DNA from: a virus
Lineage: Duplodnaviria; Heunggongvirae; Uroviricota; Caudoviricetes
Reading direction: 5' to 3' (one strand)
IMG/VR virus record: IMGVR_UViG_2690316028_000009
DNA: 5,051 bases
The position numbers and the translations under genes are program-made. Below are positions 1 through 4,966 of the stretch, one piece after another (the stretch's first letter is position 1; the number at the start of each line of letters is the position of its first letter). The notes beneath the pieces are model-generated. The model worked only from the letters and a program-made list of their open reading frames with translations. It ran no database searches and was not told the origin of the DNA.

Positions 1-126
1 GAGGGATTTCAAACCCGCCATCAATACCACCCCAGGCAGCGTCAGCATTAAGCCCGTTATCGGGCACATGACAGTCGTATTGGCTGCAAGCCCAACACGC
101 TGCATTGCATAATCGAAAAATGACAT
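1..126 (-). CDS. Possible 5' end of a gene running off the left edge (42 codons seen, hydrophobic N-terminus MSFFDYAMQRVGLAANTTVMCPITGLMLTLPGVVLMAGLKSL); product unknown
   Basis: ATG at 126-124 with an AAAGG Shine-Dalgarno-like motif 9 nt upstream; open to the window edge. The opposite strand also carries an open frame entering from the edge and stopping near 110, so strand assignment is uncertain. Confidence 0.2.
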   Translation of the reverse strand, partial: MSFFDYAMQRVGLAANTTVMCPITGLMLTLPGVVLMAGLKSL

Positions 127-509
127 GGTGGTTAACCTTTCAATGAATGGGGCTTATTATACCATGCATAGCTCAATTATTAATCAATCATCATCGCATG
201 CTTGATGCCATTTAACTTTGTCGCAGGCACTCAGTGAATGTCTGCTGTAATGCCTGCTCAGCCAAGTTGAAGCACACCGTGTTCTTTTGAATCAGAGAAT
301 GCAACAAACCCAGTGTATTCGGGGATAGTGTTCCGTCATCAGCATCAAATGCTGAAATGGTTGCGTGAAGAATCAAAAATGCTCCAAATCCCGCGCCGCT
401 GCTGCCCCTCGATGGTCAGAATCGTCAAGGAGGACCCGTTAAAAGGTAAGCAGAAAATCTGTGGTTAGAAGTGAAGGCTTTGACAACGTTCTAAATTTTA
501 TGACAGAAA

Positions 510-544
510 TAAAAAAGCATTACCTTTCAAGATAATGCTTTTTC
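510..544 (-). terminator. Bidirectional intrinsic terminator downstream of the gns gene
   Basis: Perfect 7-bp inverted repeat AGCATTA (516-522) / TAATGCT (533-539) with a 10-nt loop, flanked by an A-run (510-515) and a T-run (540-544), so it reads as hairpin plus U-tract on either strand. Confidence 0.6.
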
Positions 545-567
545 ACTCGAACTGAGTCTTATAACAA

Positions 568-741
568 TTAGATTAATGTGATTTTAATATCATAGCTTTC
601 AAGCCCAGTCATTTTTTCACGAGCATTAAACTGGATATCGGAAACTTCTTTTCCTGTCTTTTTTTTGAGTTCAATAATTTTTTTTGTGATGAATTCAGAA
701 ATATCCGCTTCAGTTTTTCTTTTTAAATCTTCGACGTTCAT
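568..741 (-). CDS. gnsB: GnsA/GnsB-family small protein, 57 aa (MNVEDLKRKTEADISEFITKKIIELKKKTGKEVSDIQFNAREKMTGLESYDIKITLI)
   Basis: My own translation; absent from the ORF track, presumably below its length cutoff. GAGAGG Shine-Dalgarno 6 nt upstream of the ATG. The sequence closely matches E. coli GnsA/GnsB as I recall it (shared core NTGKEVSEI.F.AREKMTGLESYD.KI). The choice of gnsB over gnsA is contextual (next to a CspI-like gene) and not secure. Confidence 0.8.
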   Translation of the reverse strand: MNVEDLKRKTEADISEFITKKIIELKKKTGKEVSDIQFNAREKMTGLESYDIKITLI

Positions 742-945
742 TGTTTACCTCTCTTGATCTCTAACGTATCAACGCCAGGCATGTTACATTCCCCGTAGAG
801 CACTTGTATAAGCGCTGATATGTTTAAAAGATAGAATAGAAAGACTCAATTATCAATAGTTTGCAGTACAATCTTCATGCAAAAGAGCTCGCGACCACAC
901 AAACCACTGTACTAAAATCCGGGTCGGTCACGAAACAACCAGATC

Positions 946-1176
946 TCATTTCAAAAGCTTCGAGGCTGCCTCGAGGATCTCTTCTGAACTGACATCACGA
1001 TCAGAGGCTACATAAACTATTTTATGGTCTCCTGTCAGAGATGGAAATCCCGCTGACATCACGGGTAGGTGTGCTTTTTCCCCATTGGGAAACTCACGCA
1101 TTATCGTAGTAATACCTTTCATTACGGTTACAACAACTGCTGGTTCTGCATTAAAAAAAACGATGACTTTTTTCAT
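946..1176 (-). CDS. Hypothetical 76-aa protein between csp and gns; positional counterpart of the small cold-shock-associated genes (ymcE / ynfN) in E. coli csp-gns clusters
   Basis: ORF with ATG start and protein-like, non-repetitive composition; weak Shine-Dalgarno. I do not recognise the family from sequence, so the call rests on gene order only. Confidence 0.5.
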   Translation of the reverse strand: MKKVIVFFNAEPAVVVTVMKGITTIMREFPNGEKAHLPVMSAGFPSLTGDHKIVYVASDRDVSSEEILEAASKLLK

Positions 1177-1221
1177 AATTTTACCGTGATGTCTCTTACA
1201 GAGATTGTCGGTTCAGCATAC

Positions 1222-1243
1222 AAAAAAGGCTCCATAAGGAGCC
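1222..1243 (-). terminator. Intrinsic terminator on the minus strand
   Basis: Minus-strand reading GGCTCC-TTAT-GGAGCC followed by TTTTTT (plus-strand 1228-1243 stem, 1222-1227 A-run). It lies about 200 nt downstream of the csp stop. Confidence 0.65.
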
Positions 1244-1448
1244 TGAAATTTATTTTCTGAATTCTAACGAAGACTGACCAGAACGAATGTACAGTGCAAT
1301 ATTATCAAATGTAATCATTGTTGATTTGCAAAAAATACATTTTGCTCCGAAAGGATTTTTTTCAGTAACATCAAAGTTTGACGTTCGGTACTGAGATCCG
1401 TGGCAACACGGACATCTGAAGTGAATATTATTAGTAATAACAGTTACC

Positions 1449-1661
1449 TTATACAGCCACGACATTAACTGCCGTGGGGCCTTTAGGTCCCTGTTCAACA
1501 CTAAATTCAACTTCCTGATTCTCATTCAACGTCTTGAAATCATTACTCTGGATAGCAGAGAAGTGAACAAACACATCTTTACTACCATCTTTTGGAGTGA
1601 TAAAACCAAAACCTTTTTCAGGATTAAACCATTTAACTAAACCAGTCATTTTATTAGACAT
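1449..1661 (-). CDS. cspI: Cold shock protein, CspA family (CspI/CspG-like), 70 aa
   Basis: Translation [53 protein letters not shown]... carries the RNP1 (KGFGFI) and RNP2 (VFVHF) motifs. Start taken at the third Met of the track ORF (1661), which gives the canonical MSNKMTG N-terminus and an AAGGTAATG Shine-Dalgarno context like E. coli cspA. The paralog label is from memory of E. coli Csp sequences. Confidence 0.9.
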
Positions 1662-1900
1662 AAACATTACCTTTATTGAGTAAGCCCTTGGGCAGAATGG
1701 TCCGAAAAAAAATTATCAGAGAGAAAAGCTAACAAGGAAATCTCAACAGGAACAAGGAATAAAATTATTACAGCGACTGCTTCAGATAAATTCGTTACAA
1801 ACCAGACATTCATTAACGCATGATTAACCAGACATAGCAAGGTTTAGTTTTGTAAGTAAATCTCAGTGGGTTTTGATCTTAAAAATTAATTTAAATAGCT
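1662..1900 (-). promoter_or_regulatory. csp promoter and long 5' UTR (cold-shock thermosensor-type leader)
   Basis: Candidate -35 TTGCTA (plus coordinates 1835-1840) and -10 GTTAAT (1812-1817) at 17-bp spacing, preceded by a very AT-rich UP-like tract (about 1841-1900); this predicts a leader of roughly 145 nt. CspA-family mRNAs are known to have long regulatory 5' UTRs. Exact boundaries not determinable from sequence alone. Confidence 0.4.
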
Positions 1901-2233
1901 TAAATCGAAAATTATGTCATGCTGCGTAAGACCTTTATCTATCACCCTAAGTTGTCAGGGATTTTGACTCAAGGAAGAGTCGTATTTCCTTCATAGTAAA
2001 AATTCACAAATTTATCCACGAAAACCGTCAACATCTTAATTTATAGAGCTATTATTTTTCCTCTACGGTTCATTGTTAGTATTTTTACGGACTCATAAAT
2101 CCGCTCACATGTCATTCCTGCTCGGTAGTTTTCATCAGCGCGTTCAGCATGGTATCGAGCTTCTTCTGCCAGGCTTCCTGGCATGTCTACGAGCATTGTG
2201 GTGTCATGGCGGATGGAAAGTTATGTTGATTCG

Positions 2234-2437
2234 TTAGTTATCGAGCTGTAGAACGCTATGCTCTAGCGACTCGGAATAGGCAATCAGCCCGGTGTACTCA
2301 GGGATAACCTCGCCATCATCCGCTTCGAACTCAGGGATTGTTCCGGTAGTGATGGTATATTGTGGCTGGCCATCTTCTTTTGCGAAGGCAGCCAGGTCTT
2401 CAATCTGCTTAGCTGTAAGAACTACTGTAATGCTCAT
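2234..2437 (-). CDS. Hypothetical small acidic protein, 67 aa (13 Asp+Glu against 2 Lys)
   Basis: ORF with ATG start and protein-like composition; GAGGA lies immediately before the ATG with no spacer. No family recognised. Confidence 0.5.
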   Translation of the reverse strand: MSITVVLTAKQIEDLAAFAKEDGQPQYTITTGTIPEFEADDGEVIPEYTGLIAYSESLEHSVLQLDN

Positions 2438-2572
2438 TCCTCAGTTGTTAAAAAGCCCCGCTATTGCGAGGCTTGATTGATTATGGCTAACGACTACATC
2501 GTAACGGTTATAAAAGAAGCTATTAGCCAACATGTGGTGTATGGTTGTTAACCGCCCACCAGGACAATCAAC

Positions 2573-2746
2573 ATGTCGATACTCAAAGATATCAAGATGC
2601 GTACTTTACGCCATGTGAAAAGTACTTGTCCTCATTGCTCCCGCCAGTCAAAGCACAGTCTGTCGAGAATAAAAAACAATATAACGTTAATTTGCCCCTT
2701 CTGTGGAAACATCTATCTTCCATCGGAAAGCAAACCAATAAAGTAA
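2573..2746 (+). CDS. Hypothetical Cys4 zinc-ribbon protein, 57 aa (MSILKDIKMRTLRHVKSTCPHCSRQSKHSLSRIKNNITLICPFCGNIYLPSESKPIK)
   Basis: My own translation in a frame not listed by the ORF track. ATG with AGGA 8 nt upstream; CPHC-x18-CPFC motif typical of zinc ribbons. Preferred over the overlapping track ORF 2545..2754, which needs a TTG start and has no motif. Confidence 0.5.
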   Translation: MSILKDIKMRTLRHVKSTCPHCSRQSKHSLSRIKNNITLICPFCGNIYLPSESKPIK

Positions 2747-2821
2747 CTGATTGACTACCAAATAAAACTCATACTCTCAGAATGTGGCAAAGCAGACATA
2801 ACCTTTTATTGTTGTTCTCAT

Positions 2822-3052
2822 TTAAGAGAATGTAACACCCAGAGTGGAGAGGTTTTTTTTCTTCTCCACAATACGGCGATCAAGTTCAGCCACTGCATGC
2901 GGGCGTATGGCATCAAGAAAGGCGTTATCCTGATAGGTAGACTGGATTGTCACACCAAGTCCGGCACCACTTTCCAGTATGCTTTTCTGAAGTTGTAGTT
3001 CTTTTATATCGTTATTGAGGTAATACGCTTCACTTAGGTTTTCTGCGTTCAT
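2822..3052 (-). CDS. Hypothetical 76-aa protein
   Basis: AT-rich ORF with ATG start and weak Shine-Dalgarno; its start directly abuts the breakpoint where the GC-rich integrase remnant begins. No family recognised. Confidence 0.4.
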   Translation of the reverse strand: MNAENLSEAYYLNNDIKELQLQKSILESGAGLGVTIQSTYQDNAFLDAIRPHAVAELDRRIVEKKKNLSTLGVTFS

Positions 3053-3078
3053 CTTCTACCCGTAAAGTAGAATTAAAC

Positions 3079-3411
3079 AGCGAGGCGCTGGCCGCGCTGC
3101 AGGCGCAGAAACAATTCACTTTCATGAAAAGCGAGTTTATTTTCAGCGACCCTAAAACGGGAGAGCCCTGGGCGAACGCCGACGCAATACGAAAAAAAGC
3201 ATGGGTGCCAACCCTCAAAAAAGCTGGCGTTCGATACCGTAACCCGTACCAGACCCGCCACACATTCGCCACCAGACACATTAGCCAGGGCGTAAACCTT
3301 TTCTGGCTTGCCGGGCAGATGGGGCATAAAGGGCCGGAAATGCTGTTCCGCAATTACGGTAAATACCAGGCTGAATACGACGGGAAAACCGCCATTTCAG
3401 CAGCTCTGTAG
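3079..3411 (+). pseudogene. Tyrosine recombinase (phage integrase family) C-terminal remnant; N-terminal roughly two-thirds missing
   Basis: The reading frame is open from about 3019, but only from about 3079 does it look integrase-like: ...YQTRHTFATRHISQGVNLFWLAGQMGHKGPEMLFRNYGKY..., i.e. the R-H-x-x-R / LxGH / Tyr catalytic region. No arm-binding or core-binding domain is encoded upstream. The segment is visibly GC-richer than the flanking DNA. The two minus-strand track ORFs overlapping it look like GC-driven artefacts. Confidence 0.7.
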
Positions 3412-3529
3412 CGTCGTGAGTATTTCAAAATGTTGGACGGAATCAGGACGTTAGAGGGACCACGATATGCACGTAAAATGCACTTGAGGCCTTTCAAAAA
3501 AGACAAAACATTAATATTCAATAGGTTAA

Positions 3530-3570
3530 GCATTATTCGGACACGGGTTCAACTCCCGCCAGCTCCACCA
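3530..3570 (+). other. ssrA: Partial copy of the 3' end of tmRNA (ssrA), T-arm/acceptor 3' strand ending CCA; att-site core repeat, not a functional tmRNA gene
   Basis: GGACACGGGTTCAACTCCCGCCAGCTCCACCA matches the E. coli tmRNA 3' terminus (as I recall it) with one mismatch. Neither the tmRNA 5' end (GGGGCTGATTCTGG...) nor the body is present anywhere in the window. Confidence 0.8.
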
Positions 3571-3606
3571 AATATTGATGTACTGAAGTTCAGTAAAGTC
3601 TACTAA

Positions 3607-3638
3607 GCCCGCACAGCACAAGCTCTGCGGGCTTTTTT
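3607..3638 (+). terminator. Intrinsic terminator after the ssrA 3' fragment
   Basis: GCCCGCA (3607-3613) / TGCGGGC (3626-3632) stem followed by TTTTTT (3633-3638). Confidence 0.65.
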
Positions 3639-3693
3639 ACGTCTATTGTAGTCTAGTGAGAATTGCTGAGAACTACGAGTTATGGCACCCTGA

Positions 3694-3733
3694 ATGGGAC
3701 CCACGAAGATGGGTCCTAAAATCGAGGGTCCCA
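3694..3733 (+). promoter_or_regulatory. Three phased 10-bp direct repeats immediately upstream of the integrase start
   Basis: ATGGGACCCA (3694-3703), ATGGGTCCTA (3709-3718) and GAGGGTCCCA (3724-3733) at exact 15-bp spacing; the last overlaps the Shine-Dalgarno region. Confidence 0.3.
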
Positions 3734-3736
3734 AAC

Positions 3737-4966
3737 ATGGCCAAAATCGCTAAGAAGCTCACTGACACTGAAATCAAAAGCACCAAACCTGCCGAAAAAG
3801 AGGTTAACCTTTTTGACGGCGATGGTTTGCTGTTGCGAATCGCTCCCCTGGCGAAGGGAGGGAAGAAAAATTGGTATTTCAGATATGCAGTGCCTGTGAC
3901 CAAAAAGCGAACTAAGGTGAGCTTAGGAACCTATCCTCACCTTACACTTGCGAAGGCACGAGCTTTACGTGATGAATACTTGTCGTTGCTTACAAATGGT
4001 ATAGACCCCCAAGTTCATAACAACCAAAAAGCCAATGCACTGAAAGATGCCACGGAACATACATTTCAAGCAGTAGCCAAGAAGTGGCTTGATGAGAAAG
4101 TCAAAACGTCAGGCATCTCCCAAGATCATGCTAACGACATCTGGCGAAGCCTAGAGAGAAATATCTTTTCCACATTGGGTGATACCCCAATTAAGGAGAT
4201 TCGCCCTAAAATGCTTAAACAGCATTTAGAACCCATAGAAAAACGAGGTGTCCTTGAAACACTTCGCCGCATCATATCCCGCCTGAATGAAATTTTCCGC
4301 TATGCAGCAACAGAAGAACTCATAGAATTCAACCCGGCAGACAACCTGGGGCAACGGTTCAGCAAGCCAAAAAAACAGAATATGCCAGCATTACCCCCTT
4401 CCGAACTCCCTCGCTTCTTGGTTGCTCTAAACAATGCTTCTATCCGTTTGGAAACAAGGCTACTGATTGAGTGGCAACTTCTCACATGGGTTCGCCCAGG
4501 TGAAGCTGTTCGCACAAGATGGTCAGATATTGATATTGAAACTGGCATGTGGAACATCCCGGCGGAGTTTATGAAAATGAAGAAGCCTCACAAAGTTCCA
4601 CTGAGCAAAGAAGCTTTGCGAGTTTTGGATTTAATGAAAGTCATCAGCGGGCATAGAGAGTGGGTGTTCCCCAGTATCAAAGCTCCACTCAATCACATGC
4701 ATGAACAAACAGCTAATGCGGCCATAATCCGTATGGGTTTCGGAGGTGAGCTTGTAGCTCACGGTATGCGATCCATTGCTAGAACGGCTGCTGAGGAGTC
4801 TGGCAAGTTTAGGACTGATGTCTTAGAAGCCGCCCTTGCCCACTCGAAGAAAGATGAAATAATTGCAGCCTACAATCGTGCAGAGTATCTCACTGAACGG
4901 GTGGTTCTCATGCAATGGTGGAGTGACTATGTTTCGTCTCAAAAATGCAAAGTTATTGCCGCATAA
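3737..4966 (+). CDS. intA: Site-specific tyrosine integrase, P4 family (ssrA-associated island integrase), 409 aa
   Basis: N-terminus MAKIAKKLTDTEIKSTKPAEKEVNLFDGDGLLLRIAP...WYFRY is typical of the P4-type arm-binding domain; C-terminus carries HGMRSIARTAA ... AAYNRAEY (catalytic His, Arg and Tyr). GAGGG sits 9 nt upstream of the ATG at 3737. The track ORF begins at a GTG at 3656, which I consider an over-extension. The gene symbol is by analogy to the CP4-57 ssrA-linked integrase and is not sequence-verified. Confidence 0.9.
   Translation: MAKIAKKLTDTEIKSTKPAEKEVNLFDGDGLLLRIAPLAKGGKKNWYFRYAVPVTKKRTKVSLGTYPHLTLAKARALRDEYLSLLTNGIDPQVHNNQKANALKDATEHTFQAVAKKWLDEKVKTSGISQDHANDIWRSLERNIFSTLGDTPIKEIRPKMLKQHLEPIEKRGVLETLRRIISRLNEIFRYAATEELIEFNPADNLGQRFSKPKKQNMPALPPSELPRFLVALNNASIRLETRLLIEWQLLTWVRPGEAVRTRWSDIDIETGMWNIPAEFMKMKKPHKVPLSKEALRVLDLMKVISGHREWVFPSIKAPLNHMHEQTANAAIIRMGFGGELVAHGMRSIARTAAEESGKFRTDVLEAALAHSKKDEIIAAYNRAEYLTERVVLMQWWSDYVSSQKCKVIAA

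Follow-up and report, generated by a model that had tools for sequence, protein, structure and literature searches.

An annotated YnfU-family Cys4 zinc-ribbon gene in a putative prophage remnant of a virus record

YnfU of Escherichia coli K-12, encoded in the Qin prophage, was found in 2019 by ribosome profiling of stalled initiation complexes, was confirmed by epitope tagging, and reached the highest level among the proteins newly found in that study (Weaver et al., bioRxiv 10.1101/511675). Its gene was detected independently by PIRT-Seq (PMC12350097), and later literature gives the protein just a "possible metal-binding function" (PMC11704790).

We analyzed a 57-aa open reading frame (ORF) in a stretch of 5,051 nucleotides, hereafter the window, from a Caudoviricetes record (IMG/VR IMGVR_UViG_2690316028_000009). 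An earlier note, made from the letters of this DNA, had presented the ORF as an unreported zinc-ribbon gene in a frame overlapping a longer ORF, and had proposed that its product might control the mobile element that carries it, in the manner of Ogr/Delta, Com, or TraR/DksA. Overall, the best explanation (probability, about 0.9) is that the ORF is a genuine YnfU-family gene. The YnfU family is already described and annotated, and the gene is not new.

Reading frame and family membership

The product of the ORF was MSILKDIKMRTLRHVKSTCPHCSRQSKHSLSRIKNNITLICPFCGNIYLPSESKPIK (six-frame ORF list, 30-aa threshold), with cysteine knuckles at C19-P-H-C22 and C41-P-F-C44 (CPHC-x18-CPFC). The start codon, the spacing of the Shine-Dalgarno AGGA, the cysteine motif, and the overlapping 69-aa TTG ORF given in the earlier note were all present in the sequence (Table 1). 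The Shine-Dalgarno position holds AGGA or GAGGA in the aligned Citrobacter braakii, Raoultella, and Klebsiella oxytoca homologues as well. The 57-aa ORF was missing from the ORF track because it falls below the usual 60-aa listing threshold, and the track thus displayed the wrong frame (the 69-aa ORF) at ynfU; a listing at a minimum of 30 aa does report it. The cysteine motif is not a product of chance or composition: across 2,000 shuffles of the window, no open segment of 50 aa or more contained a CPxC...CPxC pair, and 2.8% of the shuffles gave any CxxC...CxxC pair.

Table 1. Features of the window and of two chromosomal loci (window positions unless a locus is named)
Feature	Position	Strand	Remark
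Second YnfU paralogue, first 23 codons (MSFFDYAMQRVGLAANTTVMCPI...)	58-126	-	homology stops at base 58
GnsA/GnsB-family gene	568..741	-	cold-shock cargo cluster, 568-1806
76-aa phage protein	946..1176	-	phrog_3425
YmcF-like Cys4 small protein (PF23641)	1250..1438	-	listed ORF extends to 1525
Full cspA thermoregulator 5' UTR	1390..1806	-	Rfam RF01766, 141 bits
CspG-like gene	1449..1667	-	cargo cluster
Rz-type spanin 3' fragment	2041-2196	-	DUF2514 model positions 124-160 of 161
67-aa protein gene, flanks ynfU	2234-2437	-	phrog_9518, E = 4e-38, nearly end to end
G+C-rich hairpin, then UUUUU	2450..2474	-	just upstream of ynfU cassette; terminator-like
Conserved upstream block	2497..2572	+	travels with ORF; probable promoter and 5' leader
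Upstream motif GGTTATAAA	2506-2514	+	conserved in alignment
Upstream motif AGCTATT	2518-2524	+	conserved in alignment
Upstream motif GTGTATGGT	2537-2545	+	conserved in alignment
69-aa ORF, TTG start	2545..2754	+	overlaps cysteine ORF in different frame; not a gene
Shine-Dalgarno AGGA	2561-2564	+	8 nt (caatcaac) between AGGA and ATG
ynfU-type CDS, 57 aa	2573..2746	+	ATG at 2573-2575, TAA at 2744-2746; YnfU-family zinc-ribbon protein
76-aa protein gene, flanks ynfU	2822-3052	-	phrog_5415, E = 3e-35, nearly end to end
Tyrosine integrase, C-terminal third	3124..3411		gene intact (1173 bp) in E. coli E94
tmRNA 3' fragment	3369..3570		30 bits, below threshold
Partial IsrM sRNA match	3561..3638		46 bits vs gathering score 376
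P4-type integrase, complete	3737..4966		
Lone chromosomal ynfU	L004 3965-4174 (C. braakii); L005 4001-4168 (Raoultella)		adjoins dcp-like Peptidase_M3 gene

A locus scan with one genome per species gave four loci with relatives of the gene (L003 to L006). The copy in Citrobacter youngae CCUG 30791 (L003) was identical to the window's gene; the frame test compared the window with the three divergent homologous loci, from C. braakii (L004), Raoultella scottii (L005), and K. oxytoca (L006). Read in the cysteine frame, the variable columns numbered 9, 6, and 37 at codon positions 1, 2, and 3, which places 37 of 52 at the third position, and dN/dS (Nei-Gojobori) was 0.03 to 0.15 for all pairs. The same method and loci gave about 0.7 to 2 for the 69-aa frame, which was interrupted by one stop in L004, at least four in L005, and three in L006. 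This pattern of substitution indicates that purifying selection acts on the cysteine frame and that the cysteine frame is the gene. Together with the conserved Shine-Dalgarno sequence, the low dN/dS is an indirect sign that the window's copy is probably translated. The frame-conservation comparison that the earlier note had proposed thus bore out its claim that the Cys4 frame is true and the 69-aa frame spurious. The 69-aa ORF is the longer of the two and the one displayed by the track, but the probability that it is the true gene, with a fortuitous cysteine frame inside it, is practically nil: it needs a TTG start, had no family match in Pfam or NCBIfam searches, and is exposed as an artefact by a dN/dS of about 1 or above and by stops in 3 of 3 divergent homologues.

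An HMM search against zinc-ribbon families, also suggested in the earlier note, matched YnfU above cut-off in both NCBIfam and Pfam. The NCBIfam model NF038384 ("YnfU family zinc-binding protein") scored 76.4 bits (cut-off, 36; E = 8.8e-22), with protein residues 1-52 aligned over the full length of the model (positions 1-52 of 52), and Pfam PF23499 (YnfU) scored 54.9 bits (gathering threshold, 27; E = 8.4e-15; positions 1-48 of 49). Window positions 2400-2900 were 100% identical to DNA of the RefSeq genome of E. coli EC2641, where the gene is annotated as WP_213083834.1, YnfU family zinc-binding protein, with coordinates that map exactly to the 57-aa ORF. In a collection of 5.8 billion proteins, all 12 close homologues (12/12) were named YnfU family; their hosts were Citrobacter, Salmonella, Kluyvera, Klebsiella, and Raoultella. 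The alignment with E. coli K-12 YnfU was ungapped over 48 aa (42% identity, 65% positives; pairwise E = 1e-13). The ORF almost certainly encodes a genuine YnfU-family Cys4 zinc-ribbon member. What the earlier note had said of a real gene for a Cys4 zinc ribbon on a mobile element stands, and its description of the gene as unreported does not: the family has curated models (NF038384 and PF23499) and has been known since 2019, RefSeq names this exact protein at identical coordinates, and the K-12 homologue is translated. The discovery value is accordingly small.

The family as a whole is small. An exhaustive HMMER search of 1.84 billion representatives returned 49 cluster representatives at E <= 0.001 (clusters defined at 50% identity), most of them 47 to 75 aa long. 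We aligned 32 of these with the window protein, K-12 YnfU, and one paralogue; C19, P20, C22, and C44 were invariant, C41 was present in at least 90%, and the spacer between the knuckles was gapless throughout. Basic character is uniform across the family (median pI, 9.6; median net charge, +6); the window protein has a pI of 10.1 and a net charge of +9.

To judge from the motif, which is also the basis for zinc binding by K-12 YnfU, the four cysteines would hold one zinc ion and fold a three-stranded ribbon. An AlphaFold2 model built from nine sequences (mean pLDDT, 69.8) shows a sheet of three strands lying between the knuckles and around them, and a disordered N terminus of 11 residues. Foldseek comparison of this model with the PDB gave nothing significant (best E = 0.38), the non-significant matches being TFIIS, ZifS, the ATCase regulatory chain, and RPB9-type ribbons; against viral models, the best match (E = 0.028) offered nothing usable for function. 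To our knowledge, no structure has been solved for a YnfU-family protein. A sequence-profile search of the PDB returned weak or motif-driven matches to eL42/L44e, bL33, HVO_2753-like proteins, and PA0128. Its top match, a designed C2H2 poly-zinc-finger protein (E = 1.7e-8), spans two fingers and was rejected as homology because it reflects the repeated CP-x-C-x3-(F/S) pattern.

Some copies annotated as YnfU family are decaying, so that selection on the gene is not universal. Two Citrobacter database proteins (P0011 and P0012) are frameshifted near the second knuckle, and a third (P0001) carries C41G. The frameshift of P0011 falls directly after the C-P of its second knuckle and leaves the tail ...CPLLWKHLSSIGKQTNKVTD; past their frameshifts, both P0011 and P0012 continue in the frame to which the spurious 69-aa ORF of the window belongs.

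Upstream block and genomic surroundings

Three otherwise unrelated loci share DNA homology with the window from about 2497-2506 to about 2747-2756 only, a span made up of the ORF, a few bases past its stop, and roughly 70 bases ahead of it. The upstream motifs are recognisable in part before K-12 ynfU and before the paralogue of the homologous prophage (L001). These limits of homology indicate that ynfU and its roughly 70 upstream bases form a compact mobile cassette, documented here as a unit on which strong purifying selection acts in prophages as well as outside them. Judging by its conservation, the upstream block is probably the gene's own promoter; a scan for consensus sigma-70 sites returned none on the + strand upstream of ynfU.

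In the gap that separates the upstream block from the point where the 67-aa gene starts, the - strand carries a hairpin with a U run (9 pairs; -15.1 kcal/mol; z = -3.5 versus shuffles). From its sequence, this hairpin looks like a terminator of transcripts running antisense through ynfU. A simple terminator scan did not report it. An Rfam search with permissive thresholds over 2400-3750 found nothing credible over ynfU itself; the sub-threshold leader and isrJ (sRNA) matches that it gave at 2446-2549 on the - strand are of a kind typical of terminators and are accounted for by the hairpin with its U run.

Similarity to other genomes indicates that the surroundings of ynfU are a prophage remnant of 3 kb, which is joined to an integrase truncated at its 5' end, next to a tmRNA 3' fragment. 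Window positions 58-3061 matched part of a prophage in E. coli EC2641 and C. youngae at 99.9% identity. At the left edge, homology breaks inside the first knuckle of a second YnfU paralogue, with unrelated sequence beyond, and this paralogue was therefore truncated by rearrangement (junction 57/58); in E. coli EC2641 it is intact, at 54 aa (MSFF...CPICGHKST...CPKCKSLFVIHR). At the right edge, similarity to the prophage lysis region stops at 3061 (junction 3061/3062), and the arrangement from there to 4966 resembles what is left of a deleted prophage, with a second island in tandem at ssrA. ARAGORN reported no tRNA or tmRNA gene, the tmRNA being present as the 3' fragment alone.

Within the remnant, the two proteins whose genes flank ynfU (67 and 76 aa) had no Pfam, NCBIfam, or PADLOC match. 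In the homologous prophage, which is intact, the strand opposite ynfU carries genes for a holin, a lysozyme, Rz (DUF2514), and a 76-aa protein up to the ynfU site; past ynfU follow the 67-aa protein, an Rz fragment, cspG-like and ymcF-like genes, a 76-aa protein, a gnsAB-like gene, and the second YnfU paralogue. The window's Rz fragment shares about 81% identity with the end of the intact Rz gene, which is situated further along in the homologous prophage (L001, 4684-4802). This partial duplication of Rz suggests that the segment with ynfU, between the two Rz ends, was inserted or duplicated by recombination. The cold-shock cargo cluster of the window, on the - strand, resembles that of Qin.

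Other copies of ynfU were found in both similar and very different settings. In Qin of K-12, ynfU is on the + strand, with essQ and cspB on either side, and a gnsB-ynfN-ynfR-ynfQ-cspI cluster follows rzpQ. The YnfU relative of phage HannyBb is encoded on the opposite strand and has a Q-like antiterminator on one side and the holin on the other; a K. oxytoca prophage (L006) has ynfU between its lysis genes (endolysin) and the small terminase. The copies of C. braakii and Raoultella are solitary among housekeeping chromosomal genes, with neighbours that encode a dcp-like Peptidase_M3, a periplasmic binding protein, a short-chain dehydrogenase, a GntR/FCD regulator, and a class A beta-lactamase; no phage genes were found within 4 kb of either. 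The C. braakii gene also adjoins ydfG- and ydfH-like genes. In E. coli K-12, dcp-ydfG-ydfH lie near the Qin prophage, and the two lone copies may be all that is left of a prophage at an equivalent site.

Placement in the late region, opposed to the lysis genes, was thus seen in the homologous prophage, Qin, HannyBb, and the K. oxytoca prophage. It is a habit of the family and not a strict requirement, because stand-alone chromosomal copies exist. The association of ynfU with csp genes is partial, and a strict rule was rejected: the association was present in the window, Qin, HannyBb, and L001 and absent from L004, L005, and L006.

Proposed role and competing explanations

We propose that the ynfU cassette is cargo expressed in the lysogen (a "moron") and would not be part of the late operon, because the gene runs against the late genes, survives where no prophage is left, and has a K-12 homologue that is well expressed in the defective Qin. 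A promoter of its own would give the cassette expression in lysogens independent of phage late transcription, and the protein would act on the host and probably not control the element. No significant homology that assigns YnfU a function was found in Pfam, NCBIfam, PHROGs, PADLOC, or PDB-profile searches; the matches in PHROGs (19.3 bits, without functional category) and PADLOC (17.6 bits, without assignment to a defence system) were marginal. We tentatively favor nucleic-acid binding, to RNA more probably than to DNA, at somewhat less than even odds, because of the conserved positive charge and, weakly, the resemblance to ribosomal zinc ribbons.

It is rather unlikely, by our estimate, that YnfU instead binds and modulates a larger host protein, with the ribbon as a module for protein interaction. 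Such a target is the mode of action that Weaver et al. expected for many small proteins (bioRxiv 10.1101/511675), and it is consistent with persistence of the cassette outside prophages and with Foldseek matches, all non-significant, that include protein-bound zinc domains such as the regulatory chain of aspartate transcarbamoylase. However, no partner gene is conserved beside ynfU, the neighbours being entirely different between loci, and a strong positive charge throughout the family is more typical of nucleic-acid binders.

A narrower form of the nucleic-acid reading would make YnfU proteins RNA- or ribosome-binding ribbons that temperate phages deliver as cargo for expression in the lysogen, together with the Csp RNA chaperones and YmcF/YnfQ. 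We regard this form as doubtful. If true, cargo ribbons would retune host translation or RNA metabolism, for instance in the cold or in stationary phase, which would explain the strong positive charge, the weak resemblance to ribosomal ribbons, and the retention of the gene after prophage decay or alone in a chromosome.

Control of the mobile element itself, by a transcriptional or translational activator like Ogr/Delta, Com, or TraR/DksA, was the idea of the earlier note. YnfU is indeed small, basic, and phage-borne, with four cysteines and a gene in the late region near Q and the lysis genes. However, none of the three families was among the best 25 of the 33 Pfam matches, and the zinc-ribbon matches listed, other than YnfU, were all under their cut-offs. 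The gene is also transcribed against the late genes, is retained in defective prophages stripped of most of their genes (Qin, where it is also expressed, and the window's remnant), and bears the mark of purifying selection where it stands alone in a chromosome with no phage genes within 4 kb. The analogy thus found no support in the Pfam matches listed or in genomic context, and we consider element control quite improbable.

The heavy deletion of the window's prophage, with the integrase truncated at 3061/3062 and the second paralogue cut at 57/58, and the existence of degraded alleles elsewhere (frameshifts, C41G) could also be taken to mean that this copy of ynfU is a functionless relic, intact in appearance and no longer expressed or selected. 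We hold this to be very improbable: the ORF, Shine-Dalgarno sequence, and upstream block are intact and 99.9 to 100% identical in other genomes, the lineage shows strong purifying selection, and the K-12 homologue is well expressed from an equally defective prophage (bioRxiv 10.1101/511675).

As a family of 49 clusters at 50% identity with a uniformly basic character, YnfU is a reasonable, if modest, target for functional work on small proteins.

Comparison with known systems

The regulators Ogr/Delta (phages P2 and P4), Com (phage Mu), and TraR/DksA resemble YnfU in their small size, in being carried by phages or plasmids, and in a set of four zinc-binding cysteines. Their genomic setting differs, as the ynfU cassette persists without any element. 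Ogr/Delta proteins have the spacing Cys-x2-Cys-x22-Cys-x4-Cys, which differs from the C-x2-C-x18-C-x2-C of the window protein, and their family (PF04606) was not in the best 25 of the 33 Pfam matches (E up to 1), the remaining ones having E > 0.26. Com (PF10122) was not among the Pfam matches listed, and no mom-like gene lies downstream of ynfU, where the following gene is encoded on the opposite strand. TraR/DksA (PF01258) was not among the Pfam or NCBIfam matches listed.

YmcF/YnfQ proteins (PF23641) are also small and Cys4, and their genes share the prophage cargo cluster with ynfU, next to csp genes. Kinship with YnfU was rejected, as hhalign gave a probability of 10% over 13 columns.

The eL42/L44e, bL33, and HVO_2753-like ribbons share with the window protein a small size, a very basic composition, and four cysteines. 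Profile matches to these ribosomal ribbons had E values of 0.00026 to 0.06 (NCBIfam L44e, E = 0.09) and cover one knuckle and its flank only, so that they would serve as a lead to the mode of action and not as a family assignment.

The N-terminal ribbon of PhnA/YjdM (PF08274; PA0128, PDB 2akl) is likewise Cys4, with a span similar to that of the window protein. The matches (PF08274 in Pfam, E = 0.0034; PA0128 in the PDB profiles, E = 0.021) were far below family thresholds, and PhnA/YjdM proteins have a second domain that is absent from the window protein, which leaves a resemblance at the level of the fold only. Weaver et al. independently saw a weak similarity between YnfU and the PhnA/YjdM ribbon (bioRxiv 10.1101/511675).

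The closest described system is YnfU of K-12 (b4776, Qin). The two proteins differ in subclade, the window's being of the Citrobacter/Klebsiella type (MSILKDIKMR...) and that of K-12 beginning MSERKNSKSRR..., and the genes differ in position, the window's ynfU lying downstream of the Rz position and that of K-12 between Q and the holin. They are alike in length (57 and 56 aa), in basic character, and in two CPxC knuckles 18 residues apart, and both genes lie in the lambdoid late region of a defective prophage, opposite the lysis genes and by cold-shock genes.
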